Positions 10,843 through 54,182 of a stretch of 54,182 nucleotides of DNA are shown here, piece by piece (the stretch's first letter is position 1; each line of letters opens with the position of its first letter). The DNA comes from an uncultured bacterium. GTDB lineage: Bacteria > Patescibacteriota > Minisyncoccia > Moranbacterales > GWC2-37-73. The DNA is taken from positions 1 through 54,182 of the forward strand of contig CAIOVI010000037.1 in assembly GCA_903861715.1 (NCBI GenBank), in the 5' to 3' direction. Under the pieces are notes generated by a model, which saw nothing but the letters and a program-made list of their open reading frames with translations, was not told the origin of the DNA and made no database searches. The translations under genes and the position numbers were made by a program.

Positions 10843-12738
10843 CTAAACGTCCAACGCCTCCAGAATTTCTGCCAGACTGGCGGTGGCCACGCCGACGACA
10901 CTGTCGCCGCCGCCATAATACATGAAAATTTTGTCTGCTCGGTTTATGATGCCGCAAGGAAAAACCACTTTGGAAACTTGACCATTTTTTTCATAATCAG
11001 TTTCGGGTTCAAAAATAAAGTCCGTGCTTCTGGCCAGCACGACCGTTGGATCTTTCAAGGCAAGCAGCAACACTCCGACGCGATAGGTGCTGTTGTCAGA
11101 AACTCCGTGATAAAAAAGCAGCCAGCCTTTTTTGGTTTTGATTGGTGGCGCCGCAATGCCAACTTTTTGACTGTCCCACATGCCAATGCGCGGCCCCACA
11201 ATCGGCGTGAAACTTTCCACGTGCTCCCTTTCAAAATTTTCCGCTTTGACTGGATCAAGACAAATGTGATTGTGCGCTCGATGAAAAACGAAATGTCGTC
11301 CTTTGATTTTTTCTGGAAAAAGACAGGCATCTTTGTTGTCGATGCCAACCGGGGTGATGATGGTTGGCTGCGTCCAATTTTGCCACTGCCTTTTTGCAAA
11401 ATCTTTCAAGCTGATGCTTGCCGCAGCCACCACTGGCGGATTGACTCCATCATAAGCCGTGTAAAACAGATGCAAAGTATCTTCAATTTGAGTGAGGCGT
11501 GGGTCTTCGCAGCCCGAGTTTCCAGGATGCGATTTCATTTCAAAAGCTTCCCGAGGCCCATAAATAGGGCCTTCTAGCCTTTCCAAAATATCTTTGCCAT
11601 TTTTTGAAATCGCTAAACCCATCACCGAAGTGTCCTCGGAGCCCATTGCCCGATAAACAATGTAAATTTTGCCTTTCAGCTCAACCGCCGCTGGATTAAA
11701 CACCGCCTTGTTTTCCCAAGCGTGATTTTCAAGGGGCAGCAAAATTGGATTTTGCTGACTGCGAGTAAAAACTGGCTGCCTTTTGATGCTCCTTAGCAAA
11801 TCTTCCAAATTGACACTAGCCCGACAACAAGTCGTGTCGGTGGCGCCATAATAAATGAAAAGTTTTTTGCCAGCCACAAAAGCCCCCGATGGAAAAATGA
11901 CATTCGGCACTTGGCCAAATTCCTCATAAGTTTCTTCTGGCACCAGCAGTGGTCCAGAAGTTCTGGCCACAACTTTCGTCGGATCTTTCAAATCCAGCAG
12001 CAGCGCTTCGATTCCAAAAATTTTGTTGTCACTAAAATAATTTTGAATGTGAGAATAAATCAAAAGCCAACCATCTTTCGTTTTGATTGGAGCTGAACCT
12101 ATCTCGACGTGATCGCTCTCACCTCTGCGCAAAACAATGCGATGACTTTCAATTTCACGGTGCCACTTTTCCCAATAAGCTGGCGACCAAATTTCTTCCA
12201 AACTGTCAAACTCTGCCAAGGCCGTGATGACTGGCGGAGCGTCTGTGTGAGCACTGAGCATGGCCACATATTTTCCGTTTATTTTTTCCGGAAAAAGCAC
12301 CATAGCTTTAGCATTAAAAGGGGTGACCAGGTGCTTGCTGATAATTTTTTTGAAATCCTTGGTCGTGGCCACTGCAATCTTGATGCCCTCAGCGGCGAAA
12401 GGAAAAACTGAAAGCGCAGTGTAAAAAATGTAGTAAGTGTCATCAATTTTGGTCACGCGAGGATCTTCACAGCCAAACTGCTCCCATTCATATTCAGGAA
12501 AAATGAACTGCTTGCGTTTTTCATAGTGATGACCGTCCTTACTTTGAACATGGCCCACGGAAGAAATTCGCAGTTCTTTTTTGTGAACATACTGCGTGTC
12601 AGACTCGGCTCGATAAAGGGCATGAATTTTATTTTTGTCTTGAATCGGACACCAGTTGAAGGCGGCAAAAGATTCCCAAGAATGATCCAGTACTGGTTTC
12701 AGCAAAGGATTGTGAGTTGATTTTCTGACAACAAACAT
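10843..12738 (-). CDS. Tandem double-domain GH130 (DUF377) glycosidase/mannoside phosphorylase
   Basis: Two domains, each with NPxL, FNxxx, GCEDPR, GWLL and V(I/V)FP...YYGxxD. Confidence 0.9.
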   Translation of the reverse strand: MFVVRKSTHNPLLKPVLDHSWESFAAFNWCPIQDKNKIHALYRAESDTQYVHKKELRISSVGHVQSKDGHHYEKRKQFIFPEYEWEQFGCEDPRVTKIDDTYYIFYTALSVFPFAAEGIKIAVATTKDFKKIISKHLVTPFNAKAMVLFPEKINGKYVAMLSAHTDAPPVITALAEFDSLEEIWSPAYWEKWHREIESHRIVLRRGESDHVEIGSAPIKTKDGWLLIYSHIQNYFSDNKIFGIEALLLDLKDPTKVVARTSGPLLVPEETYEEFGQVPNVIFPSGAFVAGKKLFIYYGATDTTCCRASVNLEDLLRSIKRQPVFTRSQQNPILLPLENHAWENKAVFNPAAVELKGKIYIVYRAMGSEDTSVMGLAISKNGKDILERLEGPIYGPREAFEMKSHPGNSGCEDPRLTQIEDTLHLFYTAYDGVNPPVVAAASISLKDFAKRQWQNWTQPTIITPVGIDNKDACLFPEKIKGRHFVFHRAHNHICLDPVKAENFEREHVESFTPIVGPRIGMWDSQKVGIAAPPIKTKKGWLLFYHGVSDNSTYRVGVLLLALKDPTVVLARSTDFIFEPETDYEKNGQVSKVVFPCGIINRADKIFMYYGGGDSVVGVATASLAEILEALDV

Positions 12739-12795: not shown

Positions 12796-14637
12796 CTAGC
12801 CTTGCAACTGCTGCAGAACTTCCTCGCCGGCAACTTCCTCTCCAGCAACTTCCCCTGAAGCAATCAAACCTTCCAAGAACTCATCCAGTTTTTCCGTCGC
12901 CACGCAAACCACACTATCAGCTCCGCCATAATAAACAAAAAGAGTCTCGTCTTTAATGGCAGCTCCGCAAACATAAACCACCCCAGCTTTGGCTCCGTGA
13001 TTTTCATAGTGGGCAGTTGGTTCCAAAATTGGATAAGTGCAGCGATGCAAAATTTTCGTCGGATCTTGATAATCCAAAATCAGCGCCCCAACTTTATATT
13101 TATCTGGGTCGCGCTTGTCCATTGCGTGATACAAAAGTAGCCAACCATATTTAGTCAAAAGTGGCGGCGCGCCAGCTCCTCTGACAACGTTATCCCAACG
13201 ATGTTCATCAAGCCCTGGTTTTTTCAAACTCTCAATCGTGATTTCTTCACCGTCCAAATCATCGACATATTCAATGGAAATTTTCGGTGTGATGCTGTGC
13301 AAAATTGCATATTTGCCGTTGATTTTCTCGGGAAAAATCATCCAATTTTTTTGAATTTCTCCCGCCCTGGAAATCAACTTTGGTTTTTTCCATTTCCAAT
13401 CTTTGCTCAAAAAATCCTGCACCTTGATGGAAGTCAAGGCAACTCCTGGTGGATTGCAACCATCAAAAAAAACATAGGTCACGAAAATTCTTTTGCCAAT
13501 TTGAGTTGCCCGAGGATCTTCGCAGCCAGCCCAACTGCCGCCTGAAACATAGGGAGAAGCAGTGGAGGGACTTTGTTGAATTCTCAAATTTTCTGCCAAC
13601 GAAAAAACTGGTTGGTCCAATCGTTCGCTGATGGAAATTCCATCCTGAGAGTTGGCATAGCCCAAAACCGAAATCCCATTTTCTCCAATTGCCCGATAGA
13701 GCAAATGAATCTTGCCCTCCAGGCACAAGGCCGCTGGATTGAAAGTGGCATCTTTCTCCCAGCTGTTGGCTGGCTCTGGTTTAAGGATAGGATTGCTAGC
13801 GTGTCTTTTTAGTTGCCTGGCTTTTTCACTTGGCACCAAACCAGAAGAAGCCAAATTAATTGTTTTGACAAAAAATTCATTTTCAAAAGATGACCAATAT
13901 ATTTGCAAGGACTGCTTGACCAAGGCGCAACCCAAAAAACGCACGTCATATTTTTTCTTGGCCACAGATTCTTCCCACAGTGGGAGCTGCGATCTCCAAA
14001 TAGGCGCATAGGGTTTGTCCAAGGAAAACAAAGCGCAACCAATCTTTATTTCATAGTTGCTTTTTTTGTCGACTCTAGCATCATACAAAACCAAAATCCC
14101 GCGCGGCACAATCACTGTGCCAATGACATGCAAGGCGGCGCCCTCATCAAAAAAAGCCTCTGCTCTTTTCGGCAACAAGGATCCCGTTTTGTGCCAATGC
14201 ACCAAGTTGTCTGAAGCGGCCACCTGCAACGACTCGCCGCCAAAATAGGTCAGGAAGTTTTTCTTATATTTAAAGTTTGAAACAATCGGAAACAGAGCCG
14301 CCACGTCAGAAGTTTCAGCTGTAATTTTGAAATTGAGCAAGTCACTTGATTGAGCAATCAGGATTTGCTTTTCCCCTTTGCTCGTTTGCGAAAAGATGAG
14401 ATTAGCCTGATTTCCATAAGCAAAAAAGGAAAGTTGCCCACAATCAAACAGGCTCTTTTTTTGGCCGTCTTCATCAGTGAGATGCAGCTCATATTTGTTG
14501 CCAAAGGTCAGCCCATCTTCACTTTGCGACAAAAATATTCTTGTCTCACTAGGAGTCTTAACTCCATAAACAAACATCACCTTCTTCCCGTGAGGCACGA
14601 CTGAAAAAGGATAAAATGTAGCCTTCGCTGTTTTCAT
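12796..14637 (-). CDS. GH130 family glycosidase with a degenerate N-terminal propeller
   Basis: C-terminal half has NPILKP, FNPAA, GCEDPR, QKNW, GWLLLYH, YYGGAD; N-terminal half lacks EDPR. Confidence 0.85.
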   Translation of the reverse strand: MKTAKATFYPFSVVPHGKKVMFVYGVKTPSETRIFLSQSEDGLTFGNKYELHLTDEDGQKKSLFDCGQLSFFAYGNQANLIFSQTSKGEKQILIAQSSDLLNFKITAETSDVAALFPIVSNFKYKKNFLTYFGGESLQVAASDNLVHWHKTGSLLPKRAEAFFDEGAALHVIGTVIVPRGILVLYDARVDKKSNYEIKIGCALFSLDKPYAPIWRSQLPLWEESVAKKKYDVRFLGCALVKQSLQIYWSSFENEFFVKTINLASSGLVPSEKARQLKRHASNPILKPEPANSWEKDATFNPAALCLEGKIHLLYRAIGENGISVLGYANSQDGISISERLDQPVFSLAENLRIQQSPSTASPYVSGGSWAGCEDPRATQIGKRIFVTYVFFDGCNPPGVALTSIKVQDFLSKDWKWKKPKLISRAGEIQKNWMIFPEKINGKYAILHSITPKISIEYVDDLDGEEITIESLKKPGLDEHRWDNVVRGAGAPPLLTKYGWLLLYHAMDKRDPDKYKVGALILDYQDPTKILHRCTYPILEPTAHYENHGAKAGVVYVCGAAIKDETLFVYYGGADSVVCVATEKLDEFLEGLIASGEVAGEEVAGEEVLQQLQG

Positions 14638-41279: not shown

Positions 41280-42407
41280 TTATTTTCTTTTATAATCATC
41301 AACTCCACGCAGTGCCAAACCGATAGCCACCGAAAAAGAAGCTCCCAATTCTTTCACAAAAGGCGCAACTTCATTTTTGACGGTTATGCCCCGCCAAGGA
41401 TTGCCTATCTGGACTTTCTCACCCAGCGCTTGTGCGAAATATTCAACCACGCCCTTCATTTTTGAAGTTCCACCTGAAATAATCAAGGCCTCAATCTCAG
41501 CCTTGCTATTCTTTTCTTTGTAAGCAACGATGATGCGACGCAATTCGCCCACAATCAAATCCAGCACCGGAACAATAATGGCACTTTCCTTGCTGTTGAG
41601 AATATCCTTTTCTCCTTTTTTGAAAATCTCCGCCCTGGCTTTTGAAACATTCATGCCGTCAATGATAGCTGAAGTGATTTCATCCCCACCAGCATCGATA
41701 TTACGGTTAGCGCAAATAACGCCCTTCTCAACTAAGATAATGTTAGTCGCCCGAGAACCGATGTCTACCACCAAAATAGTTCCGCTGCTGTCACCGACGA
41801 GTGAACGAGCAATGGAAAAAGTTTCCAGTTCTATGGCGCTGACTTCCAGCCCAACTCCCGAAACCAAGCGATCACAATGTTCGATATCCTTTTTAGGGGC
41901 AGCGACCAAAAGCACCTTAATTTTTCCAGCTGGATTATTTTTTGAATCACCTTTTAATTTAAGCTTGGCCATGATTCCATCTTGCTCTGGAAGTTTGACA
42001 TTTGTGGACTCTCTTTCGATAACCTCCCAACTCATGGCCACCTCATCAAGAGCGCTCGGGATATATTTATGGGCTTCAAATTGAATGGCCTTTGCCAATT
42101 CTGCTTCTGGCATGTCAGGCAGTTCAATGATGGTCACTAACCCACTAAAGCCAGGGATGGAAACGAAGGTCGAGGCAGGCTTAACTTTCATTTTGACAAT
42201 CAATTTTTTTAAAGATTCATTTAGCGTCTGCTCTACGGAGGTTGTTTTGAGATTATTATTAAAATTTTCCAAATTCAAACTAACAAACCCATAATTTTCT
42301 AAGCGAGTTTGCTGGTTGGTGTATGAAAGCTCGACCACCTTAATCGAAGACGTTCCAAAATCAACTCCAATAAAATGATTTTTATTTGTTTTAAACAGTT
42401 CAAACAT
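41280..42407 (-). CDS. pilM: Type IV pilus assembly protein PilM
   Basis: IGVDFGTSSIKVVEL, EAHKYIP, VDIG, SGG, VAIGLALR. Confidence 0.95.
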   Translation of the reverse strand: MFELFKTNKNHFIGVDFGTSSIKVVELSYTNQQTRLENYGFVSLNLENFNNNLKTTSVEQTLNESLKKLIVKMKVKPASTFVSIPGFSGLVTIIELPDMPEAELAKAIQFEAHKYIPSALDEVAMSWEVIERESTNVKLPEQDGIMAKLKLKGDSKNNPAGKIKVLLVAAPKKDIEHCDRLVSGVGLEVSAIELETFSIARSLVGDSSGTILVVDIGSRATNIILVEKGVICANRNIDAGGDEITSAIIDGMNVSKARAEIFKKGEKDILNSKESAIIVPVLDLIVGELRRIIVAYKEKNSKAEIEALIISGGTSKMKGVVEYFAQALGEKVQIGNPWRGITVKNEVAPFVKELGASFSVAIGLALRGVDDYKRK

Positions 42408-42484
42408 ATTTATTTTTATGTTATCCTAAAGCATATCAACTATCAAAATAATAACACATATCCCAAAAGTCAACAAGTAAAAAA

Positions 42485-43240
42485 ATGAAAAAACTGTGGA
42501 TAAAAATTATTTTCAGCCTAAGAAAAATAAGACTAGCCGTGCTTGATGTTTTTTTCCCCATCAGTTGCCTTGGCTGTGGGACTCCAGACAATTGGCTCTG
42601 TGAAAGTTGCCAGCGAAAAATAAAGAGGCGTGATCAGCAGCTTTGCCCAGTTTGCGAAAAAAACATCACCCCTGATGGTCAAGTCTGTTTTGCTTGCAAA
42701 AAGAAAACTTCTTTGACGGGTCTGCTAGTTGCAACAAGCTATCAGCAACCTCTGATTTCAAAAACTGTCCATCTCTTCAAATATCGTTTTCTCGCAGAGC
42801 TTGCAAGGCCGCTAGCTGAGTTAATTTTGCAAGCAATTCAAACTTGTGAATTGCCCTTGCCAGAACTCATTATCCCGATTCCTCTCCACCCCCGCAGACT
42901 CCGCTGGCGAGGTTTCAACCAAGCAACGCTGCTAACCGAGGAGATGGCTGACAAACTTTTGCCAGATGCAAAACTAGAAATTTCAACTGACACCCTGATT
43001 CGCCAGCGTTACACCCTGCCCCAAATGACCCTCAAAGACCATCGCCAACGCAACGCCAATATTCAAAATGCTTTTGTCGTCACCGATGCTGCAAAAATAA
43101 AAAACAAAAGGATCCTGCTGATTGATGACATCACCACCACTGGTTCTACAATTTTTGAATGCGCCCGCGTCCTCAAAAAAGCCGGGGCCAAAGAAATCTA
43201 CGGCGCCGTTATCGCCCGGCAAGAATACAAGCAAAAATAA
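42485..43240 (+). CDS. comF: ComF family protein (zinc ribbon plus PRTase domain)
   Basis: CxxC clusters, PIPLH...RGFNQA, LIDDITTTGST. Confidence 0.95.
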   Translation: MKKLWIKIIFSLRKIRLAVLDVFFPISCLGCGTPDNWLCESCQRKIKRRDQQLCPVCEKNITPDGQVCFACKKKTSLTGLLVATSYQQPLISKTVHLFKYRFLAELARPLAELILQAIQTCELPLPELIIPIPLHPRRLRWRGFNQATLLTEEMADKLLPDAKLEISTDTLIRQRYTLPQMTLKDHRQRNANIQNAFVVTDAAKIKNKRILLIDDITTTGSTIFECARVLKKAGAKEIYGAVIARQEYKQK

Positions 43241-43304
43241 TTACCTCCACCCCAACATCCCTAACCGCTCAAACTTTCCCACCCAACTTTCCCACTTCTT
43301 GCTT

Positions 43305-43340
43305 TGTGTCATAATCCCACGGCCGACGTCAGATGACACT
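43305..43340. repeat. Palindrome family B, copy 1
   Basis: TGTGTCATAATCCCACGGCCGACGTCAGATGACACT. Confidence 0.8.
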
Positions 43341-43406
43341 TTTTTCTTTCTTCTTTTCTCTCCTTATTTCCCCTTGTATTTCAATAATTTGGCAAAATTT
43401 TTTCTT

Positions 43407-44024
43407 TTATGTTTCAGCTTCCACAATTCCCGCCTCCACCAAAGCTGCAAAGTGCTTTGGTTTTTTCTGAAAAAGATATTCCGCTACTTTGCCCCGAATG
43501 TTTTCAGCCTTGAGCTGATTTTTTTTGGCAAAATTTTCAATTTTCTCGGTGGCCTGAAAGGTCTCAGTTTTATTTTCAACCAACAACTCCACTTCAGCAA
43601 CTTGATAACAAAAATCTTGCTCACCTGGCAAGTCAGAAGTTGCCACATCTAAATCAATTGCAAGACCTTCTTTTTGATATTTTCTGCGAGTTGTCTTGAG
43701 TCGGCAAAAAATTTCATAGCCAAAGGCCTTGATGTCAGTTTCAAAATCCAACACTGGCGCCACCGCAAAAATTTCCCTGATTTTTTCAGCGCCCGAAATT
43801 TCTTGAAACTGAGTAGTCTGCAATTTCTCCCCTTGAAGGACGGGCAATTTTAATTGAAATTCTTTATCTCTTTTTCTCAGCCAAATATTATTTTTCGAGA
43901 GCGTAAAATCCTCGGTGTCAAAGTAGGCATCCGTGAAAGTTTTTTCACCGACAAAAATTGCGCCCGCCAACAAGCTTTCTTTTTCTGCTTCATCTAATTT
44001 AAATTTCCTTTCAACCTCAATCAT
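43407..44024 (-). CDS. CYTH domain protein (triphosphate tunnel metalloenzyme)
   Basis: EVERKF, DAYFD, WLRKR, LK, AEVE. Confidence 0.92.
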   Translation of the reverse strand: MIEVERKFKLDEAEKESLLAGAIFVGEKTFTDAYFDTEDFTLSKNNIWLRKRDKEFQLKLPVLQGEKLQTTQFQEISGAEKIREIFAVAPVLDFETDIKAFGYEIFCRLKTTRRKYQKEGLAIDLDVATSDLPGEQDFCYQVAEVELLVENKTETFQATEKIENFAKKNQLKAENIRGKVAEYLFQKKPKHFAALVEAGIVEAET

Positions 44025-44060
44025 AATATTTTTATCCCCCCCCTTTTTTTATTCCCCCAC

Positions 44061-44096
44061 TGTGTCCTGATTCCACGGCCGACGCCAGATGACACA
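44061..44096. repeat. Palindrome family B, copy 2
   Basis: TGTGTCCTGATTCCACGGCCGACGCCAGATGACACA, 31/36 identical to copy 1. Confidence 0.8.
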
Positions 44097-44174
44097 TTAT
44101 TTCTTTTCCTCTTATTCCCCTTATTTCTCTCTAGTTCCCTTCCTCCCCTCATTCCCCTTATTCCCTTTCTTTTT

Positions 44175-45374
44175 TCACCCCATCACTTCGACTTTTTCCA
44201 GCTGCGAGATTTTTTCATTCTCGCAACATTGCTTAGCTAGCCCAAAAGCCACCATCAGCAAAACTGCACTGAGCAAAAACGGCCAATGCAAATTCCTGAC
44301 AAACAAAACCCCACCAACAAGCGGTCCGACAATCATCGAGACTGACAAAATCGAAGACATGATTCCCATCACTTCCCCTCGACGATTGGCTCCGCCAGCC
44401 TTGGCAATAGCGCTCGAAAGCACCACCCGCAAAGTTGATTGAGAAAAGGTAATCAAAATTACACCGAAAATAAAAACAATTGGACTCTTAAAATCCATCA
44501 AGAGAAAGCTTCCCGCCATAACTGGAAAGAACCAAACTTCCAATTGTTTTTCCGTGAAATATTTGAGCCAAATGTTTTTCAGAAAAACAGTTTGGTTGAA
44601 AACCAAAATAATTCCCATGCCAGCAAAAATATAGCCTATCACCCAAGCCGACCAACCGAAAAGTTCTTTCACAAAAAGCGAGAAAATTCCGTTCATGAGA
44701 GCAAAGGCAGTCCCATAAAGAAAAAAAGAAAAATATCTCAAACTCAAAGTTTTATCTTTGGCAGCTCGAAGCAGTGGCAAAAAGGGATTGATTTCAATTT
44801 TCTTTTCAGAAACTGTTCTGTTGTGATGAGTTTCTGGCAAAAAGAACCAAGCGCCAACCATGTTAAGCAGCGCCAAGACTCCCACAAACCAAAAGGGGAA
44901 AGCTGGAGAAATAGCACTAAGCATCGCACCCAAAAATGGCCCGATGATAAATCCAATGCCAAAAACTGCCCCAATGATTCCCAAATTTGATGTTCGTTCT
45001 TTGTCATCCTTGGCAATATCCACCAAATAACTTTGAGCAATCGGAAAATTTCCAGCTGCTGCTCCATCAATGATGCGCCCCAAAAACAAAACCCAGACCG
45101 CATTGGCCCCGGCAAACACAAACCAACCCAAAGCTGTGCTGGCAATGCTCAAAATCAAAACCGGTCTTCTGCCAATGCGATCTGAAAGTGCTCCCAAAAA
45201 TGGCCCGCTCACAAAAGAAAAAAGCGCAAAAACTGAAAAAAGCAACGTCACCACAAAAGAAGAAACCCCAAAACTCTCCACATAAAAAGGCAAAACCGGA
45301 ATAATAATCCCAATTCCCAAGACATCAATAAACACCGTCGCCATTATAATCAACTTATCTTTTTGAATTTTCAT
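44175..45374 (-). CDS. MFS efflux transporter (TetA/DHA1-like)
   Basis: DVLGIGIIIPVLP, GALSDRIGRRPVL, GRIIDG, GFIIGP.LG, LPET. Confidence 0.93.
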   Translation of the reverse strand: MKIQKDKLIIMATVFIDVLGIGIIIPVLPFYVESFGVSSFVVTLLFSVFALFSFVSGPFLGALSDRIGRRPVLILSIASTALGWFVFAGANAVWVLFLGRIIDGAAAGNFPIAQSYLVDIAKDDKERTSNLGIIGAVFGIGFIIGPFLGAMLSAISPAFPFWFVGVLALLNMVGAWFFLPETHHNRTVSEKKIEINPFLPLLRAAKDKTLSLRYFSFFLYGTAFALMNGIFSLFVKELFGWSAWVIGYIFAGMGIILVFNQTVFLKNIWLKYFTEKQLEVWFFPVMAGSFLLMDFKSPIVFIFGVILITFSQSTLRVVLSSAIAKAGGANRRGEVMGIMSSILSVSMIVGPLVGGVLFVRNLHWPFLLSAVLLMVAFGLAKQCCENEKISQLEKVEVMG

Positions 45375-45486
45375 TTATTTTAAATTTTGACTAATTTATT
45401 ACAGAAATCCTATCCAAGCTTAACACACTCCAAAAATCAAACCAAACCCCAGCAAAGAACTACCAAAACAAAAAAACTCTCTCAAC

Positions 45487-45530
45487 AAAGTGTGACAGAA
45501 GTCTGCGGTCGCAGACTTCTGTCACACTTT
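45487..45530. repeat. Palindrome family A, copy P1 (perfect 21-bp arms)
   Basis: AAAGTGTGACAGAAGTCTGCG-GT-CGCAGACTTCTGTCACACTTT. Confidence 0.97.
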
Positions 45531-45571
45531 TATTTTCTAATTAGCAAAACAGTAAAAAGTTTATTAATCAT

Positions 45572-46369
45572 TTAACTCAACGAAATAACAAACAAGTCAA
45601 TTTTCTCACCATAAAATAATTCCGCCAACGCTTGGACATGTGGTGAATTTTCAGTCGTTAAAAATATTTTCTTTCCCCCTTCCTTTAACTTATCTTTAAA
45701 TTCAGGATGCCGATCGAGATACTCTTTTAGTTTTTTTGCGACAATTTCTCCTTGAGAAAATATTTTAATCCCATCTGGAAGATATTTACGAAAAGTTTTT
45801 TCGACTATTGCATAATGCGTGCACCCCAAAATTATAGCATCCATTGAAATACTTTTTTCGAAAAGCTCTTGCGCATATTCCTGAACAACGCTATCAAGTT
45901 GTTCAAAATTTCCAGCCTCAATAATCGGTACCAGCAAAGGACAAGCTTGTTGGAAAACCTTCGCCTGCGGATTAAACTTTGAAATTTCAGCCAAATAAGC
46001 ACACGAGGAAACAGTTGCCTCGGTTGCAAAAATTCCAACATTTCTCGTCCCAATCATTTCTTCCGCAGTCGGAATAATTATTCCCAAAACTTTTTTGCCA
46101 GGATGTTTATCTGGAAGATATTCCTGCTGCAATCTTCTCAATGCCATAGTTGAGGATGTGTTACAGGCTAAAATGATAAGATTAGCTCCTCGCCGAAACA
46201 ACTCCTCAACACCCTGACAGGTATATTGATAAATTTTTTCTTGAGAAAGATTCCCATAAGGAGTTCGAGCATTATCACCCAAATAAATATAGGAATAATT
46301 CGGCAAAGCCTTTTCCACTTCCTTTAAAATAGTCAGGCCTCCAAAGCCAGAATCAAAAAATCCAATCAT
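45572..46369 (-). CDS. murI: Glutamate racemase
   Basis: FDSGFGGLT, GDNARTPYG, ACNT, LGCTHY. Confidence 0.95.
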   Translation of the reverse strand: MIGFFDSGFGGLTILKEVEKALPNYSYIYLGDNARTPYGNLSQEKIYQYTCQGVEELFRRGANLIILACNTSSTMALRRLQQEYLPDKHPGKKVLGIIIPTAEEMIGTRNVGIFATEATVSSCAYLAEISKFNPQAKVFQQACPLLVPIIEAGNFEQLDSVVQEYAQELFEKSISMDAIILGCTHYAIVEKTFRKYLPDGIKIFSQGEIVAKKLKEYLDRHPEFKDKLKEGGKKIFLTTENSPHVQALAELFYGEKIDLFVISLS

Positions 46370-46412
46370 AATAAAATTTATAAATATTTATCCCAAATAA
46401 ACATACCCTCAA

Positions 46413-46456
46413 AAAGTGTGACACATCTCTGCGGTCGCAGACTTCTGTCACACTTT
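46413..46456. repeat. Palindrome family A, copy P2
   Basis: AAAGTGTGACACATCTCTGCG-GT-CGCAGACTTCTGTCACACTTT. Confidence 0.97.
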
Positions 46457-46457
46457 A

Positions 46458-47885
46458 TTATTCCATTATAAGGGCATCCGAACTTTCGGTGTATTTCTTT
46501 ATAAGGGTTGTGATTGTTCCATTTTGTTTCAAAATATTTAGCTCAGTATCCAAGAAATCTTTTAGTCTCTTTTCGCCTAATTTAAAAATGAAAGGATTTT
46601 CGTAAACCCTAATTGGCTTTGCTGGAATTGGCACCAATTCAACCGCTGAATTTTTGTTAAAACTTTCAACAATACAAGGTTCCGTAAATGTAAAATCTGC
46701 TTTATCCTCAGCCACAAATTTTAGAGCTCCCATCACGCTGTCCAATTGCGGAATTCCGACTTGTCGATTGTTTGGAAAGTCAGCTTTCACAATTGAATCC
46801 GTGATGTCATTTTCAATCACGGCCACCCGAATATTTTTATCACCACGAATTTCTTCAATGGTTTTTCCATAGTCAGCGCGAACCCAGGCAAAAGCTGGGC
46901 TTTTATATAGTGACATTGAAAAATCAGCCTTTACCTTTCGCTCTGGCGTCGGCCAAGCAGTGCTGCCAAACATATCAAATCGATTGCTTTCCAAACCTTC
47001 AATAATCACCCCATAACCAACCTCTTCAGTCCAACGAACTTGCCAACTATATTTTTCAGAAATCAAAGAAATAATCTCAAAAAATATTCCCGAGAAAGCA
47101 TTGCGCTCTTCATTATGAATAAAAGCTGGCGGATAATTGATAAAACCAACTCGCAAGATTTTTGTTTTTTCTATCCTATCCAAAACATCCGCAAAACTCT
47201 CATCTTCCTGATCATCCTCCAGCCCCCAGATTGGGTTATATGTTTCATACGGATTTTCAATCAGCAGAAAATCTAGTTGATTCCTAACTATATCGTCGAA
47301 TTTTCCAGAAACATAGCTTTCGTAAACCTCCCAATTTTTATGATAAACATAAACAGCCTTTTGAGTTTTGAGAAATTGCGGCGCGAATTCCAAAAATGCC
47401 AACTCTGAAAGCAGATAGTGAACAGCTATGTCAGTTGATTTTTCCAAATCTTCAATCTTTCGTTCGCCACCTTCTAAAACTTTTCGCGTTGTCAAACTCG
47501 CGACAGCGTGAAATTTTTTATTATTTTTATATAGGTCCAAAACCTGCGCGTATTTCTCCTTATAGTCAGGATTATTTTCAACTTCACCCTCCCAATCAAT
47601 AATTCTCACAATATCATTCAAATAGCCTAACTCCTTTGCTACCTTCAAAACCCTATTTTTCAAAGCATTTCCTTTTGGAATTGCTTTATCTCTGCGCGCT
47701 CGATTTTCTGGATAACCAAAAGCCACATAAGTTGAAATGGCAGGAATGTCAGCCACCAAAATGGCTACTCTGCCAAACCGTTCCACAATGGTCTTCAAAA
47801 GATAACTAATTTCCTCATCTTTAAAATAGCTATTCCCAGGACTCATTCCAATGATATGATAGACTTTTTGGTCAATATTCGACAT
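46458..47885 (-). CDS. tRNA-dependent cyclodipeptide synthase (NYH type) fused to a C-terminal family-3 solute-binding domain
   Basis: N-terminal IIGMSPGNSYF, YVAFGY, HYLLSELAF and VYVYH match AlbC-type CDPS motifs. C-terminal LDRIEKTKILRVG..YPP, G+FFEI, LESNRFD, TPERK..DFS, L.QNGT+..L+KKY match SBP_bac_3. Confidence 0.85.
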   Translation of the reverse strand: MSNIDQKVYHIIGMSPGNSYFKDEEISYLLKTIVERFGRVAILVADIPAISTYVAFGYPENRARRDKAIPKGNALKNRVLKVAKELGYLNDIVRIIDWEGEVENNPDYKEKYAQVLDLYKNNKKFHAVASLTTRKVLEGGERKIEDLEKSTDIAVHYLLSELAFLEFAPQFLKTQKAVYVYHKNWEVYESYVSGKFDDIVRNQLDFLLIENPYETYNPIWGLEDDQEDESFADVLDRIEKTKILRVGFINYPPAFIHNEERNAFSGIFFEIISLISEKYSWQVRWTEEVGYGVIIEGLESNRFDMFGSTAWPTPERKVKADFSMSLYKSPAFAWVRADYGKTIEEIRGDKNIRVAVIENDITDSIVKADFPNNRQVGIPQLDSVMGALKFVAEDKADFTFTEPCIVESFNKNSAVELVPIPAKPIRVYENPFIFKLGEKRLKDFLDTELNILKQNGTITTLIKKYTESSDALIME

Positions 47886-47949
47886 ACGGCTAAATTATAC
47901 AATTTAAGATATTTCCTCTTTTTATCCTACCAGACAAATTTTAATTTTA

Positions 47950-47993
47950 GAAGTGTGACACATCTCTGCGACCGCAGACTTCTGTCACACTTT
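47950..47993. repeat. Palindrome family A, copy P3 (central dinucleotide inverted)
   Basis: GAAGTGTGACACATCTCTGCG-AC-CGCAGACTTCTGTCACACTTT. Confidence 0.97.
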
Positions 47994-48008
47994 TTTTGGA
48001 AAATAATT

Positions 48009-48605
48009 TCATTTATTTCCACCCTTTTTATCAATTTTTGAATAATCAAAAATTTTGTCAACTAAAAGATAATTCACAAATTTATTCATCTTTCTTTTTT
48101 GAATTTCAACGATTATGTCTTCTGTTAAAGAAAACTTACTAATGAAAACACTTTCTTGTAGCTGCTCATATTGCAGAAGATAAAGTTCCCCTCGCAACCA
48201 ATTCCGATCTGCTCTATTTTTTTCCGGAATATCAAAAATTACAAGTCGATATTTTCCATCCCATTTTTTTGCTAAAACTTTTCTGCGCAAACCAATACTT
48301 TCAAACAATTTTATTCCCCTTACACTTAGCGAAAAGATACTGCCTTTCTTTTTCACAATTCCCTGTGCGATCAATCTTTCCAGATTTTTTCTGATTGTAT
48401 TTTTGCTGATTTTCTTATTTTCGAAACCAGTTTCAAATCCAAACAACATTCTTGTTGGTTTTGTGAAGGAATATTTTGGAGAGAAAAATGACTGCGAAGT
48501 CGCCTCGCCTAATTCCCAAAGAGTGGCACAAATATAGTCATTAACCGCTGGTACGCTTTTAAGGATGTGCTTCTGAGCCTGTTTAAGAAAAGTTTTGCTA
48601 GCCAT
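48009..48605 (-). CDS. PaaX-like protein: winged helix plus Cas2-like ferredoxin-fold domain
   Basis: TIRKNLERLIAQGIV...FSLSVRG (wHTH); WDGKYRLVIFDIPE..R..R..LR..L......LQESVF. Confidence 0.88.
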   Translation of the reverse strand: MASKTFLKQAQKHILKSVPAVNDYICATLWELGEATSQSFFSPKYSFTKPTRMLFGFETGFENKKISKNTIRKNLERLIAQGIVKKKGSIFSLSVRGIKLFESIGLRRKVLAKKWDGKYRLVIFDIPEKNRADRNWLRGELYLLQYEQLQESVFISKFSLTEDIIVEIQKRKMNKFVNYLLVDKIFDYSKIDKKGGNK

Positions 48606-48668
48606 ATTTTTAAATTAAAATATTAAGCATGGATTTATTTTAATTTTACCAAATATTTTTTGATTTTA

Positions 48669-48712
48669 AAAGTGTGACAGAAGTCTGCGGTCGCAGACTT
48701 CTGTCACACTTT
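48669..48712. repeat. Palindrome family A, copy P4 (identical to P1)
   Basis: AAAGTGTGACAGAAGTCTGCG-GT-CGCAGACTTCTGTCACACTTT. Confidence 0.97.
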
Positions 48713-48740
48713 TTTCAATTCTCAGTTTTTTTATTTCTCG

Positions 48741-49250
48741 CTACATCCTTTCGCCAAAATTTCTGTTTGAGTGATAAGCTTGCTCCTCTTCCTCAACTGG
48801 CGTGATGTGATATTTAACAATGGTGAGTTTTGAGCCAACATACAGGTCACTATCGTCGGTTTCCTCAACCATATTGCGAAAGTTTTTTTCGTATTTTCGG
48901 CCTTTTGACTCAACCGTGAAAACGTCGAAATATTCAATTGATTCTTTCATGCCATAGTCGCCTTTCACATTTAAATTGATTTCTTTTTCGCCGCTGCCCA
49001 AATCATCAATCACAATTTTCACTTTTTCGCTGTCAAAAATGGCCGTGACTTTTCCATCACCTTTTCCATCGCTCAAAGAATTTTTCACGAGCTCAACCAA
49101 ATAGTTCCCAATCGCATAAAGTTTGCCAGGAGTCGCTGGCGATTTCGCTTCTTTTGAAATCTCTTTCCACCAAGCTCCAACAATGCTAGCGATGTTTCCT
49201 GCTTGCACTGCTTTGATTTCCAAACTTCTCTCGAAAATTTCTTCGGTCAT
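48741..49250 (-). CDS. Stand-alone GHKL/HATPase_c protein (RsbW/anti-sigma-like)
   Basis: ELVKNS (N box), IVIDDLGSG (G1), GDYGM (G2). Confidence 0.7.
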   Translation of the reverse strand: MTEEIFERSLEIKAVQAGNIASIVGAWWKEISKEAKSPATPGKLYAIGNYLVELVKNSLSDGKGDGKVTAIFDSEKVKIVIDDLGSGEKEINLNVKGDYGMKESIEYFDVFTVESKGRKYEKNFRNMVEETDDSDLYVGSKLTIVKYHITPVEEEEQAYHSNRNFGERM

Positions 49251-49358
49251 ATTAATTGTTGTTATTGTTATTTATCAACCTTACATATTTTCATTATATC
49301 GCACTTTCAAGGTAAGCAAAACAACAGCAAAAGTAAAGAAAAATGGACCGCAAAATGC

Positions 49359-49387
49359 TTGACAGCTAAGCTGGAAAGGCATAAACT
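49359..49387 (+). promoter_or_regulatory. Sigma70-type promoter
   Basis: TTGACA-N17-TAAACT upstream of the 49446 ORF. Confidence 0.6.
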
Positions 49388-49445
49388 ATTATGAAGTTTA
49401 TTTAAGGTTAAAAGTTAGTCTAATTTAGAACATTTAAAACATGGG

Positions 49446-49727
49446 ATGATTATGAAAACTCTAAAAGGAACACTTTCGAAAACGGGGGTTTTGAGGAAAA
49501 ATCTCCAAAAGATAAAAAACTATGCCGTCAATGGTGGTGACGCATATGAAATAGGAATTCTACTTTCGCTTATTCTGCAAGACGATGATGAATATGTACC
49601 CTTTTGGGCAAAAGGATATGTTGACAAATATGTAATAAACAAACTTCCAGACGAACAACAGACAGAGGAGCTAAGACAATCAGAAGCTCAGAAACTCATT
49701 GAAAAACTTTCAGCAATGCTGGAATAA
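49446..49727 (+). CDS. Hypothetical protein
   Basis: 93-aa ORF with its own promoter and a downstream hairpin; no family recognised. Confidence 0.65.
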   Translation: MIMKTLKGTLSKTGVLRKNLQKIKNYAVNGGDAYEIGILLSLILQDDDEYVPFWAKGYVDKYVINKLPDEQQTEELRQSEAQKLIEKLSAMLE

Positions 49728-49748
49728 AAACTTCAAGACATTACGTTT

Positions 49749-49798
49749 AGCATCAGGACTATGGCAACATTGCCATGTTACAGTCCTGATGCTTTTTT
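49749..49798. terminator. Hairpin between convergent genes
   Basis: AGCATCAGGACT...AGTCCTGATGCT followed by a T run. Confidence 0.65.
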
Positions 49799-50162
49799 AT
49801 TTCCTCCCCAGTCTTCCATTTGTTTTGTAGCCATCATCAGAAGACCAAACAAGAAACAACCTTTTCTCAAAGCCACCTTTCTTTTCAAAATTTTTCTGTT
49901 GCTGTTTGGCAATTTCTGCTGAAGTAATTTTTTTCAGTTTTAAAATTTCTTCAATCACATCCAGAACATCAGCAATTTCCTCAATAAACTGGCTTTTGTT
50001 TTTAGCTTGCAAAAGTTCACTGCTCTCTTCCCCAGCTTTTTTCAAAAGCTCTTTCAAAAAATCAACTTTTGAAAGTTTGCGAGTTTCAAGCTCGCTTCCC
50101 CGATTAATTATCTTTTCCGGAATTTTGTCCCGTATCAATTTTCGATAATAGATTTTTTTCAT
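49797..50162 (-). CDS. Nucleoside triphosphate pyrophosphohydrolase (MazG-like, all-alpha)
   Basis: Y.KLIRDKIPE.I, EE..E, EEIADVLDV, KKGGFEKR. Confidence 0.9.
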   Translation of the reverse strand: MKKIYYRKLIRDKIPEKIINRGSELETRKLSKVDFLKELLKKAGEESSELLQAKNKSQFIEEIADVLDVIEEILKLKKITSAEIAKQQQKNFEKKGGFEKRLFLVWSSDDGYKTNGRLGRK

Positions 50163-50174
50163 AGTCTTAAATTT

Positions 50175-50666
50175 TTACCACTTTTCCTGATGAATTTTCT
50201 CAATTTTAAACTCTTCGTCGCTGTGCTCGGGTTTTTCCTCGGCAGGAAAACCGATTGGAATGATATCAATCATACGAAAATTTTTGGGCACGCCAAGGAT
50301 TTCTTTGACTTTTTCTTCCCAGACTGGCGTCAGATTTTTCCAAACACTGCCAAGCCCAAGCTCGGCAGCTTGCAAAAAAATATTTTCGGAAACGATGGAA
50401 AGATCCTGCACTGGCAAAACAGATTGATCGGTGGCGACCGGCGCAATCAGCACCGGCGCGGTTTTGATGTAGTCCTGATCAATAACTTCAAAAACTGCTT
50501 CCTTGATTTTTTGATCTCTGATCACAATAAACTCAACCGCACTTCTGCCCATCGCGCTCGGTGCAAATTGCCCAGCTTTGATAATCTCATTTATCATCTC
50601 ATCTGAAACCGAATCACTTTTGTAAGTTCGAAAGCTCCGACGTTTTTTGATTGCGTTGATAATCAT
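50175..50666 (-). CDS. Nitroreductase family protein
   Basis: IKKRRSFR.Y, APSA, NIFLQAAELGLGSVW, IPIGFP. Confidence 0.93.
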   Translation of the reverse strand: MIINAIKKRRSFRTYKSDSVSDEMINEIIKAGQFAPSAMGRSAVEFIVIRDQKIKEAVFEVIDQDYIKTAPVLIAPVATDQSVLPVQDLSIVSENIFLQAAELGLGSVWKNLTPVWEEKVKEILGVPKNFRMIDIIPIGFPAEEKPEHSDEEFKIEKIHQEKW

Positions 50667-50810
50667 AAAGTTTTTAGGTTATTGTTAGGTATTTTCATTA
50701 TAACCCACTTTGGAACTCAAACAAGGCACCCATCGTAAAGCCACCCCGAAGCTGACTCTTGATATTTATAAAATTATCTGTTAATCTAAATTTTGTAAAT
50801 GAGTGATTTT

Positions 50811-51036
50811 GGAGAAGTGACTGAGAGGGTCGGATGCGAGTGTGCGAGCATCAGACGGGTTTCAAAAGAAACCCTGGCGGCCCGAAGTCCACAAATTTTT
50901 GAATTTACAAAGTAAATAGATATGGAGAAGTGACTGAGAGGGTCGGATGCGAGTGTGCGAGCATCAGACGGGTTTCAAAAGAAACCCGGGCGGCCCGAAG
51001 TCCACAAATTTTTGAATTTACGAAGTAAATAGATAT
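50811..51036 (+). repeat. Two 113-bp tandem units, each a tRNA-Ser(GCT) 5' fragment plus a two-hairpin element
   Basis: GGAGAAGTGACTGAGAGG at 50811, 50924 and 51037. Confidence 0.95.
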
Positions 51037-51126
51037 GGAGAAGTGACTGAGAGGCCGAAAGTACCTCACTGCTAACGAGGCAGGGCTTAACCGCCCTCGA
51101 GGGTTCGAATCCCTCCTTCTCCTCCA
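51037..51126 (+). tRNA. tRNA-Ser (GCT)
   Basis: GGAGAAG/CTTCTCC acceptor stem, GCT anticodon, long variable arm, encoded CCA. Confidence 0.95.
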
Positions 51127-51185
51127 AAAAACCAGGCTTTAATTTCGAGGCCCTCAGTTTTTTGTATTTTTGAAAAAAATAAATT

Positions 51186-51235
51186 GGAAGCATGGCCTCC
51201 GCCCAAGGCGGATCCGCCTTGGGCGGAGAGTGGTT
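51186..51235 (+). pseudogene. tRNA-Ser(TGA) 5' fragment interrupted by a 30-bp perfect palindrome
   Basis: GGAAGCATGGCC[TCCGCCCAAGGCGGATCCGCCTTGGGCGGA]GAGTGGTT. Confidence 0.9.
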
Positions 51236-51252
51236 ATTATTTCTTGTGGCTT

Positions 51253-51501
51253 ATGTACTACGTATATATTCTAAAAAGTAAGAAAAATAGCAAATTGTAT
51301 AAAGGATTTACTGCGGATTTACGTAGAAGAGTTGTGGAGCATAATTCTGGAAATTCTGAGTTTACAAAAAATAATAGGCCATGGAAACTTGTTTATTATG
51401 AAGCGTTTGTGAATGAAAAAGATGCAAGAAGAGAAGAAAAATTTGTAAAATCTGGAAAGGGGAGAGAAAGAATAAAATATTTATTTGAAAATCTAGAATA
51501 A
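51253..51501 (+). CDS. Small GIY-YIG nuclease (82 aa)
   Basis: YYVYILKS...LYKGFT.DL.RR..EHN.G...T...RPW.LVYYE......A..E...KSG.GR. Confidence 0.93.
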   Translation: MYYVYILKSKKNSKLYKGFTADLRRRVVEHNSGNSEFTKNNRPWKLVYYEAFVNEKDARREEKFVKSGKGRERIKYLFENLE

Positions 51502-51504
51502 ATT

Positions 51505-51615
51505 GGAAGCATGGCCGAGTGGGTCAAATGCGAAAAAAGAGCATTTGACGGGTTTCAAAAGAAACCCAGGAACCCGAGGTCATTCAAATTTTTGCATTTT
51601 TGAAAAAAATATTAA
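51505..51615 (+). repeat. tRNA-Ser(TGA) 5' fragment plus two-hairpin element (111-bp unit)
   Basis: GGAAGCATGGCCGAGTGG then GTCAAATGC/GCATTTGAC and GGGTTTC-AAAA-GAAACCC. Confidence 0.92.
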
Positions 51616-51700
51616 GGAAGCATGGCCGAGTGGTTGAAGGCAACAGTCTTGAAAACTGTCATGGGGAGACCCATCGTGAGTTCGAATCTCACTGCTTCCT
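51616..51700 (+). tRNA. tRNA-Ser (TGA)
   Basis: GGAAGCA/TGCTTCC acceptor stem, ACAGT-CTTGAAA-ACTGT anticodon arm, long variable arm. Confidence 0.95.
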
Positions 51701-51806
51701 CAAAAAATAAACACCTTTTGGTGTTTTTTTGCTTACTTGAAAAAATTTTGAACAACCCAAGGTTTATGCTAAAGTTAAGTCAGTAAAAGTAACAACGAAA
51801 AAACCT

Positions 51807-52400
51807 ATGCCAGTTGACTTGCGACAATTTATTGAAAAACCAAAAGAAGACGGTCGGCGCATCCCACCATATTCGCCACCTCAAACCCCAAAGGAAAATT
51901 TTCGAGAACAGGAAACTGAAAATGCCGAAGAACCTCGAGGTGAAATTCTGCACCAGTGGCAAGCGCCAGAATTTGAAGTTTATGAAAAATCCAATCGCTG
52001 GTATCTTTTGGCAGGAGCTTTCTTGCTGGCCATCATCACCTATGCGATGTTTACCAATGGCCCAATTATGGCCATTACTTTCATTCTGATTGGCATCGTC
52101 GGCTATATCCACCTGCAAAAAGAGCCCCGCCTTGTGACTTTCACCATCACCAACGAAGGAATCATCGCCGACAAAGACATGTATCTTTTTGAAAACATTC
52201 ATTCTTTCTGGGTTTTTTATGAACCCCATCATATGGAACTGATCAGTCTGCACACCAAAGCCGCCATGCTCCCCTTTGTGCACATTCCCTTGGAAAACGA
52301 AGACCCAGTGCACCTGCGTGAGATGTTGCTTCCTTTCATTCCCGAAATCAAACAAGAGCCCAGCTTCGTCGACACCCTCGAAAGAATTTTGCATATCTAG
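51807..52400 (+). CDS. Conserved CPR-type 2-TM membrane protein
   Basis: W.APEF....KS.RWY, two TM helices, SFWVFYEP. Confidence 0.85.
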   Translation: MPVDLRQFIEKPKEDGRRIPPYSPPQTPKENFREQETENAEEPRGEILHQWQAPEFEVYEKSNRWYLLAGAFLLAIITYAMFTNGPIMAITFILIGIVGYIHLQKEPRLVTFTITNEGIIADKDMYLFENIHSFWVFYEPHHMELISLHTKAAMLPFVHIPLENEDPVHLREMLLPFIPEIKQEPSFVDTLERILHI

Positions 52401-53777: not shown

Positions 53778-54180
53778 GGGGTTGTTTAGTTTCGACAGGT
53801 TGTACTTTTCAAAATATGCAAGTCGATCACCGCTGCTGTCATCGTAAAAAGTGTGGCGAAGATATAAGTGCAAACTTCATATCAAAGGCGAAAGCTACAT
53901 TTGCGCAAGCATTTGCTAGTTTCTCTCCTGTTTTAGCTTAGGCTGAAACCATCGAACTGCTGATTTCTCATACGCAGAGCTCGGTGTCAATCATGAGGAT
54001 AGCTTGATGCGGTTTTTCAGACGCAACAAGCAAAACAACTCTGAAAACGAAATGCGTGGGTTTTGTTTGTTTCCTACTGCGCAACTTCGTATCCCGATTC
54101 GTCGGGGGTGAAACAAACTAAACTTGTAGAGGATTTTGAAATGAATGATTTGGACATGGGTGCAATTCCCATCAACTCCA
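53778..54180 (+). ncRNA. ssrA: tmRNA
   Basis: 5' GGGGTTG...TTCGAC pairs with 3' CAACTCCA (G3:U70, A73); T arm ATGGGTGCAATTCCCAT; tag ORF 53870-53941 ANFISKAKATFAQAFASFSPVLA*; next to smpB. Confidence 0.95.
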
Positions 54181-54182
54181 CA

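Follow-up and report, generated by a model that had tools for sequence, protein, structure and literature searches.

A cyclodipeptide synthase fused to a cytoplasmic solute-binding domain in Patescibacteria and other microbes

We describe a gene in the 54,182-nucleotide contig CAIOVI010000037.1 (hereafter the window, meaning the whole stretch of DNA that was analyzed), from an uncultured freshwater member of the Patescibacteria, whose product joins an N-terminal tRNA-dependent cyclodipeptide synthase (CDPS) to a C-terminal domain with the fold of solute-binding proteins (SBPs). This CDPS-SBP protein is a genuine, widespread but rare and uncharacterized CDPS architecture, and the annotation-level claims made about it here are secure. 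As to function, we favor a cytoplasmic, single-polypeptide CDPS that would be regulated by a small zwitterionic ligand. This reading is drawn from sequence comparison and structure models, and we give it about an even chance of being correct.

Domain architecture and the fused family

The 475-amino-acid open reading frame (ORF) contains zero internal stops and divides into a synthase domain, a linker and a binding domain (Table 1). The synthase half matches Pfam PF16715 (CDPS) over residues 10-195 (E 1.5e-28; 100.5 bits against a cut-off of 27) and NCBIfam TIGR04539 (tRNA-dependent cyclodipeptide synthase; E 1.4e-35; 122.9 bits against a cut-off of 45). Residues 244-466 match Pfam PF00497 (SBP_bac_3; E 1.1e-16; 61.3 bits against a cut-off of 26.4), and this match covers profile positions 1-130 of 132. 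An earlier reading of the same DNA, made from its letters without database searches (the sequence-only reading), had proposed a CDPS joined through an acidic linker to a complete SBP_bac_3-like domain. Each part of that proposal is borne out: both synthase profiles score above their curated cut-offs and the predicted fold is like that of YvmC, AlbC and Rv2275, the binding domain is complete by profile and has two lobes, and the linker (residues 213-232) holds seven Asp and Glu residues, no Lys or Arg, and has a pI of 4.05. In the alignment of fused members, the start of the linker is kept family-wide through residue 224 with the consensus YETYNPxWGLED.

The protein carries no export or membrane signal, again as the sequence-only reading held. 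The open frame around the ORF is 478 codons long, with three sense codons between the upstream stop and the ATG, and a signal peptide therefore has no upstream room; a highest 19-residue Kyte-Doolittle mean of 1.59 speaks for the lack of a transmembrane segment. An enzyme that uses aminoacyl-tRNA must be cytoplasmic, and thus so is the internal binding domain that lies behind it. The full-length AlphaFold2 model has a predicted local distance difference test (pLDDT) score of 91.5, dipping in the linker to 10-residue block means of 73 and 59. Its predicted template modeling (pTM) score of 0.85 suggests a defined interdomain arrangement.

A word-indexed protein search returned 244 matches. The best 120 of these are 436-500 amino acids long and 51-69% identical, and all 120 carry both PF16715 and PF00497; the window protein itself recurs, without any change, on 76 contigs. 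In the ESM Atlas, the corresponding cluster of 77 members has the CDPS domain in 100% and SBP_bac_3 in 99%. Scanning GTDB with a single genome for each species yielded 63 loci, which were sorted by script and then by re-reading under translation table 25. Both domains lie in one ORF under table 11 at 37 of the 63 (one of them cut by a contig end), and two more are intact only when TGA is read as Gly under table 25, one of 449 amino acids with 11 TGA codons (L040) and one of 450 with two (L038). The remainder comprise 19 stand-alone CDPSs (204-238 amino acids), three fragments, one gene broken in two and one internal-deletion remnant. In this last, a 192-amino-acid Kerfeldbacteria remnant (L055:6001-6579), CDPS residues 1-82 (79% identical) are joined directly to the final third of the binding domain. 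An alignment of 63 fused members, 50-67% identical to the window protein, has 54 invariant columns spread across both halves. No longer CDPS-SBP fusion was found among proteins of 833-2375 amino acids, which is weak evidence.

A frameshift or a chimeric assembly joining two genes would be the simplest way to dismiss such a protein, and short-read contigs do break at hairpin repeats that flank the gene. These breaks lie outside the ORF. A 1554-bp contig (46427-47980 of the window) spans the whole ORF with 0 differences in lake-water runs X1 and X3, which possibly derive from the source sample, and a 602-bp contig from a peat run of another study bridges the domain junction at 91% identity. Together with both domains in all 120 listed homologues and an architecture found in hundreds of independent sequences, this rules out the misassembly or frameshift that the sequence-only reading had named as its own undoing; we regard the chance of an artefact as negligible.

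Active site, binding cleft and the case for regulation

The synthase half belongs to the NYH subfamily on the evidence of its sequence. In pairwise HMMER alignments to YvmC, BtCDPS, Rv2275 and AlbC (the AlbC match covers query 9-184 and chain 31-205), S15, N18, Y157, E161, Y181 and H182 are the equivalents of AlbC Ser37, Asn40, Tyr178, Glu182, Tyr202 and His203. The motifs that the sequence-only reading had picked out are thus present, and at the positions used in catalysis they line up with YvmC and Rv2275. None of the six residues varies among the 63 aligned fused members, and the same holds for a family-specific motif, A-D-x-P-A-x-x-T-Y (residues 45-53). The AlphaFold2 model of the CDPS domain (residues 1-215; pLDDT 96.3) has the Rossmann-type CDPS fold, and its Foldseek matches include YvmC (template modeling (TM) score 0.79-0.82), AlbC (0.77) and Rv2275 (0.76). 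The tRNA-binding face of CDPSs is a basic patch on a long helix, and in the model of the window protein a long basic helix at residues 59-85 (R62, R64, R65, K67, K71, K76, R78, K81 and K84) would be the counterpart. By alignment and model, this half looks catalytically competent.

Substrate pockets (eight P1 and seven P2 positions) were placed by transferring the cYY motifs listed in Table 2 of Gondry 2018 to the Rv2275 alignment. The predicted first pocket, I11-G13-L43-A45-W98-F164-L165-Y179, is hydrophobic and near-constant family-wide, with its fifth position ambiguous by one column (W98 or E99). It resembles the x-G-x-P/A-W-x-x-F/Y motifs that this table (PMC5816076) assigns to CDPSs accepting Pro, Leu or Phe/Ile. 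The first substrate would, given this hydrophobic pocket, probably be Pro, Leu, Ile or Phe-like. Both the mapping and this guess are of low confidence, because Gondry 2018 places the fourth P1 residue at 'position 119' and our mapping puts it on strand beta-3. The predicted second pocket is T132-K135-V136-G139-K183-W185-E186. Four of its positions (T132, V136, K183 and W185) are each kept in at least 59 of 63 fused members; among the 45 rows of a CDPS-domain alignment, made of the window domain and stand-alone relatives, T132 occurs in 29, V136 in 43, K183 in 17 (Arg in 14) and W185 in 43.

The second pocket bears on one alternative, in which the binding domain delivers the acceptor: its cleft would present a free amino acid or amine that attacks the aminoacyl group on Ser15, giving a linear aminoacyl conjugate instead of or besides a cyclodipeptide. 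The layout invites this idea, with an aminoacyl-tRNA-dependent acyl-enzyme tethered by a 20-residue linker to an amino-acid-type pocket, yet the second-pocket positions are kept in fused members, and less strictly in the 45-row alignment. Stand-alone CDPSs inside the fused clade, the closest of which keeps the catalytic residues and first-pocket motif, argue for unchanged chemistry, and we consider acceptor delivery distinctly improbable.

The relation between fused and stand-alone forms was addressed with a quick maximum-likelihood tree on CDPS columns, built from 37 rows of fused proteins, 19 rows from stand-alone loci and 13 stand-alone representatives, and omitting L019, L038-L040, L055, L061, L063 and L064. 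A single clade (SH-aLRT 99) unites every fused form with 13 stand-alone ones, and within it 36 fused and three stand-alone forms share one branch (support 89). The fused or stand-alone label has to change five times on the tree, and at least three of these changes are forced by the starred branches. The stand-alone relatives terminate at about residue 209-212. The nearest of them (L044, 70% identical) does not differ from the fused protein in its catalytic residues or first-pocket motif. A tblastn search for SBP remnants within about 6 kb of the 19 stand-alone loci found none that was significant, the only hit at E<=1 being a 38-residue match with E 0.83 (L058). Since close relatives without the binding domain keep an identical active site, the domain looks accessory or regulatory, not catalytic, and its gain or loss at a constant active site fits a regulatory add-on better than substrate delivery, so far as sequence can tell.

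The binding half (residues ~233-475) is modeled as a complete Venus flytrap (type II binding protein) and superposes on AncCDT-1 (TMt 0.88), AncCDT-5, PaCDT, ArgBP, EhuB and other class F binding proteins; with the full-length model, TMt is 0.83-0.88 to AncCDT-1, AncCDT-5 and ArgBP. Its closest solved relatives by sequence are AncCDT-1 (7e-10) and EhuB (6e-7). The pocket signature is Y251, E287, E288, Y291, W311, R316, E358, D360, Q380, F400 and E402, of which Y291, W311, R316, D360, Q380 and F400 are invariant in the 63-member fused alignment and E358 and E402 nearly so. At one of the two table-25 loci (L040), the stretch equivalent to W311 reads C-P-T-R-A, not S-T-x-W-P. R316 aligns with the conserved Arg of the T-x-E-R motif in the AncCDT-1 and EhuB alignments, E402 aligns with the Asp after the 'ADA' strand of AncCDT-1, and Y291, W311 and R316 align with a Tyr, Phe and Arg of EhuB. 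We take the ligand contacts to be Tyr60, Phe80 and Arg85 in EhuB, and Tyr14, Phe52, Ser72, Arg77 and Asp161 in the LAO-binding protein. In binders of amino acids and ectoine, positions of the R316 and E402 type presumably hold the ligand carboxylate and ammonium, with aromatic residues stacking on the ligand. Our best guess for the ligand, from this Arg/Glu pair and the aromatic, acidic lining, is a free zwitterion: an amino acid, perhaps basic, or an ectoine- or betaine-like solute.

An exhaustive HMMER search found many stand-alone homologues of the binding domain, 255-330 amino acids long with N-terminal extensions. Among 82 stand-alone exported homologues, W311 is kept in 63, R316 in 70, an acidic residue at 358 in 76, Q380 in 50, F400 in 65 and Glu or Asp at 402 in 64; they also share Y/W251, E287/288, an aromatic residue at 291 and an acidic one at 360. 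One exported paralogue lies on another contig of the source genome (L068:1390-2271); it is 32% identical, its N-terminus is hydrophobic, and genes for an ABC permease and ATPase come after it. The fused domain thus retains the cleft of an uncharacterized family in which the one member checked adjoins transporter genes, which favors small-molecule binding over a derived enzyme or a dead scaffold. No ABC permease or ATPase gene flanks the CDPS-SBP gene in the window, and none is conserved across loci.

The same comparison bears on two alternatives. The binding-protein fold might have become an enzyme, a tailoring domain resembling cyclohexadienyl dehydratase, as the top sequence and fold matches to AncCDT and PaCDT structures would allow. 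AncCDT-1, the nearest of them, carries the title of an ancestral amino-acid-binding protein, the pocket signature is common to the 82 exported homologues, and the one checked in the source genome adjoins an ABC permease and ATPase; the chance of a dehydratase-like domain is accordingly very slim. Alternatively, the domain might have lost its small ligand and serve as a scaffold on which the protein oligomerizes or meets tRNA or a partner protein. Folds of binding proteins do find use outside transport, for instance in the N-terminal module of MltF, to which the domain has a weak NCBIfam match (PRK10859, E 0.0038), and most small carrier genomes lack a transporter paralogue. The invariant residues are nevertheless cleft positions that exported transport SBPs conserve as well, and an acidic domain (pI 5.14) is unfavorable for binding tRNA, so that a pure scaffold strikes us as quite unlikely.

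A further possibility is that what the domain binds comes from the enzyme itself, either its product or a by-product in the form of a linear dipeptide, with feedback inhibition, sequestration or hand-off to an exporter as the purpose. The conserved pocket would serve here too: its aromatic-rich cleft (Y251, Y291, W311 and F400) would suit a flat ring, fold neighbors bind cyclic or peptide ligands (ectoine in EhuB; GshT in 4c0r), and an MFS gene lies two genes downstream in the source genome. However, that neighbor is not conserved at other loci, and R316 and E402 are kept although a diketopiperazine ring has neither a carboxylate nor an ammonium group for them to hold in their presumed roles. 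Product sensing, one of the options raised by the sequence-only reading, therefore appears the less likely form of control, and we judge this alternative unlikely overall.

The conserved pocket and the accessory nature of the domain are consistent with ligand gating, and on the zwitterion-regulated reading the protein would work as follows. The CDPS half would load an aminoacyl group from aminoacyl-tRNA onto Ser15, accept a second aminoacyl-tRNA and release a diketopiperazine. The binding half would capture a free zwitterionic metabolite (an amino acid, whose side chain might be cationic, or an ectoine- or betaine-like solute), which Arg316 and Glu402 would hold within the aromatic, acidic pocket. 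Flytrap closure would then be relayed through the short conserved linker, switching or tuning the synthase, and diketopiperazine output would report the cellular supply of the captured metabolite. The unmodified diketopiperazine would exit the cell as a signal or allelochemical, and the gene would be an accessory, horizontally moving, self-contained module.

Several observations weigh against this reading. The position equivalent to Ser72 of amino-acid binders is Trp in the fused domain, and the pocket mapping comes from pairwise alignments at ~20-25% identity combined with presumed residue roles. The nearest named SBP family, the EhuB model TIGR02995, scores 42-65 bits, far below its equivalog cut-off of 190.9, and the ligand class is for that reason a guess. 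The interdomain geometry is model-dependent: the single-sequence model in the Atlas has a pTM of only 0.49, against 0.85 with AlphaFold2. Finally, of 20 carrier genomes no larger than 1.2 Mb, 19 have the fused gene as their sole SBP-family member (E<=1e-15), so that sensing the cargo of a cognate importer is not supported as a general role.

Distribution, mobility and genomic setting

The gene is patchily distributed. The CDPS-SBP protein (query P0001) was found in 0 of 40 relatives of the same genus, family and order, and PF16715 matches occur in six of 401 sampled genomes of the phylum, the source genome included, of which only two have a frame of fused size. Carriers beyond Patescibacteria, with taxa as named in their records, include Obscuribacterales/Melainabacteria (7-9.6 Mb), Bdellovibrionota (3.8 Mb) and others, and taxa are intermixed on the CDPS tree. 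One fused locus is recorded as Woesearchaeota (L013), and another, in a 4.8-Mb genome recorded as Bryobacterales (L027), groups with Obscuribacterales. No conserved neighbors or tailoring genes were found: apart from the gene itself and antisense artefacts, the largest neighbor cluster is present at six of 61 loci. The lack of a conserved neighbor family argues against a biosynthetic cluster, and since tailoring and partner genes are missing, the diketopiperazine that is made probably stays unmodified.

A patchy, mobile, single-gene distribution would also suit a conditional toxin or defense effector that consumes charged tRNA when its ligand is present, the other role raised by the sequence-only reading. 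That role finds no backing here: 0 PADLOC-DB families match at E<=0.01, and there is no conserved immunity or partner gene. Product formation by ParaCDPS and ParcuCDPS is also slow, at 0.0024-0.05 per min, according to the portion of PMC7613923 consulted. We therefore hold a toxin or defense role to be very unlikely.

A 38-nt palindromic hairpin recurs in the window after each of four consecutive minus-strand genes, which encode a 169-amino-acid protein, a PaaX/Cas2-like protein, CDPS-SBP and a Glu-racemase-like protein. The palindrome is perfect in two of the copies, and the other two have a 4-nt internal mismatch in common; between the copies on either side of CDPS-SBP, the only difference is that the central loop is inverted. 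About 12 sites in the 1.28-Mb genome bear the hairpin, and other genomes of the genus carry it as well. One of these (G003) keeps the order of the 169-amino-acid gene, the PaaX-like gene, the racemase, MFS and CYTH genes at 80-83% DNA identity, with just one hairpin separating the end of the PaaX-like gene from the start of the racemase gene. This hairpin is identical to the downstream copy of the window, and its flanks match those of both window copies save for one right-flank substitution. The CDPS-SBP gene and one hairpin thus form a clean 1537-bp, single-gene indel bounded by this genus-specific repeat. Insertion by transfer is the simpler reading, because the gene is absent from all other relatives searched; the absence from G003 carries the caveat that contigs break at hairpins, so that a 1.5-kb repeat-bounded segment could drop from a metagenome-assembled genome. 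Flanking hairpins were also considered as a family-wide trait and rejected, since only one of 36 other fused loci shares a 14-mer between its upstream and downstream 250 nt. Integron cassettes were another reading considered for the hairpins, which are palindromes of near-perfect form.

A minus-strand T-run comes after the hairpin 3' of CDPS-SBP, and an extended -10-like element, TGTATAAT, precedes the gene, with no Shine-Dalgarno-like sequence between TGTATAAT and the ATG. Taken together, these sequence features suggest an independent, possibly leaderless or near-leaderless transcription unit.

Compared with three further genomes of the same genus (G002, G005 and G006), region 42400-52000 is rearranged between the CYTH gene and the tRNA-Ser genes, with hairpin-separated single genes reordered or missing, and this region beside tRNA and tmRNA genes looks like a variable, cassette-like one. 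The tRNAs at 51037, 51616 and 52723 and a tmRNA at 53778-54182 (plus strand; tag peptide ANFISKAKATFAQAFASFSPVLA) lie just past it. REP/RAYT-type systems combine scattered palindromic repeats with a Y1 transposase gene that such repeats flank. One Y1 (IS200/RAYT-type) transposase gene is present in the source genome (G000:C46:25332-25694); no link to the hairpin was found, nor any hairpin match on contig C46. The PaaX-like gene directly upstream of CDPS-SBP (48009-48605, minus strand), which is kept in G003, encodes a 198-amino-acid protein with the PaaX central Cas2-like domain (4e-15) and weak PADLOC Cas2 matches. Elsewhere in the window, an ORF of >2359 amino acids on the minus strand (2-7078) runs off the end, matches no Pfam family at E<=1e-5 and has a GC content of ~0.47-0.54 against ~0.33-0.44 across most of the remaining window. 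Two tandem minus-strand genes of the GH130 (beta-1,4-mannooligosaccharide phosphorylase) family (10843-12738 and 12796-14637) have N-terminal extensions of ~280-330 amino acids without a Pfam match.

Table 1. Positions of the CDPS-SBP gene, its domains and associated sequence features (window coordinates unless a locus is named)
Feature	Position	Strand	Remarks
CDPS-SBP gene, whole	46458..47885	minus	475 codons plus stop; ATG start
CDPS domain, residues 1-212, NYH type (Ser15, Asn18, Tyr157, Glu161, Tyr181, His182)	47250..47885	minus	profile, alignment, fold
Acidic linker, residues 213-232	47190..47249	minus	composition, family alignment
Type II periplasmic-binding-protein (SBP_bac_3) domain, residues 233-475, without export signal	46461..47189	minus	profile, alignment, fold
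Extended -10-like element TGTATAAT	47894..47901	minus	8 nt before ATG; read by eye, unlisted in consensus scan
Hairpin repeat copies, 38 nt (44 with flanks)	45490-45527, 46416-46453, 47953-47990, 48672-48709		each just 3' of a minus-strand stop
Upstream hairpin copy	47953..47990	.	after PaaX-like gene stop
Downstream hairpin copy	46416..46453	.	4 nt past CDPS-SBP stop, then minus-strand T-run (terminator-like)
Table-25 fused genes	L040:5980-7329, L038:5992-7344		11 and 2 in-frame TGA, respectively

Significance and relation to known systems

CDPSs are viewed as stand-alone enzymes of secondary metabolism whose output is set by transcription and by the supply of aminoacyl-tRNA. If the regulated reading is true, CDPS-SBP would be the first case in which a small molecule directly controls the tRNA-dependent formation of peptide bonds outside the ribosome, as well as a compact natural biosensor-synthase pair. 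The strong constraint on the protein in genomes of 0.6-1.3 Mb that are shorn of most biosynthesis, along with single-gene mobility, makes it likely that the product matters for how ultra-small symbionts deal with other cells. A bolder and rather doubtful extension is that the gene is a mobile one-gene 'sense-and-signal' device common to host-dependent and predatory microbes, in which the flytrap would read how much of an amino acid or solute obtained from the host is present inside the cell, and would directly determine how much is made of one specific diketopiperazine acting on the host or neighbors. The lineages covered, by record name, would be Patescibacteria including those that use code 25, Obscuribacterales/Melainabacteria and Bdellovibrionota, with DPANN archaea for the unfused form. 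In that case it would be the first CDPS known to be gated allosterically by a ligand, and would give episymbiont and host a defined channel of small-molecule exchange. The protein is small and soluble-looking, and both predicted activities are open to standard assays.

The sequence-only reading knew of no characterized protein of this architecture, and the full-text literature searched agrees, giving one passing mention (Gondry 2018, PMC5816076) and no characterization. No joint full-text mention was found of cyclodipeptide synthase with either solute-binding or candidate phyla radiation. As judged from listings, Patescibacteria papers that name CDPSs do so only as a gene-cluster class, a joint mention with substrate-binding proteins is irrelevant, and nothing relevant emerged in full-text literature for a CDPS fused to an ABC-transporter-type domain; two reviews, searched by term, were silent on the latter. 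The consulted parts of Gondry 2018 describe CDPSs fused to tailoring domains (e.g., CDPS 71, CDPS-P450) and name 'ABC-transporter domains' among fusion partners, a remark that may refer to the CDPS-SBP family.

Those tailoring fusions (PMC5816076, as far as consulted) likewise place an N-terminal NYH CDPS before a C-terminal extra domain; the window protein has a fold for binding ligands where those fusions have a tailoring enzyme. The stand-alone NYH CDPSs (YvmC 3OQH, BtCDPS 7AZU, Rv2275 2X9Q and AlbC 3OQV) share with it the hidden Markov model family, the fold (TM 0.76-0.82), the Ser/Tyr/Glu/Tyr set and the N-Y-H signature, but the window CDPS is only ~17-22% identical to the solved ones. 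It also differs from them in adding a C-terminal binding domain of 243 residues, and in lying outside a biosynthetic cluster and in ultra-small genomes. ParcuCDPS, from the same superphylum, is by the consulted portion of PMC7613923 an active (cHP and cHE), single-domain enzyme of 230 residues in the XYP subfamily; to the window CDPS it is a distant fold match (TM 0.58-0.64) and is absent among sequence matches at E<=0.1.

For the binding half, class F binding proteins of the EhuB/AncCDT-1 type (2Q88, 5T0W) are the best matches by sequence and fold, with the R316, E402, Y291 and W311 positions aligned. Unlike them, the window domain lacks a signal peptide, mostly lacks a transporter partner and has extra invariant acids at E287 and D360. 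An analogy for its arrangement, and no more than that, is MltF, a periplasmic protein in which an SBP_bac_3 fold is fused to an enzyme as an allosteric module. Both proteins carry this fold on an enzyme; the module is N-terminal in the periplasmic MltF and C-terminal in the window protein.

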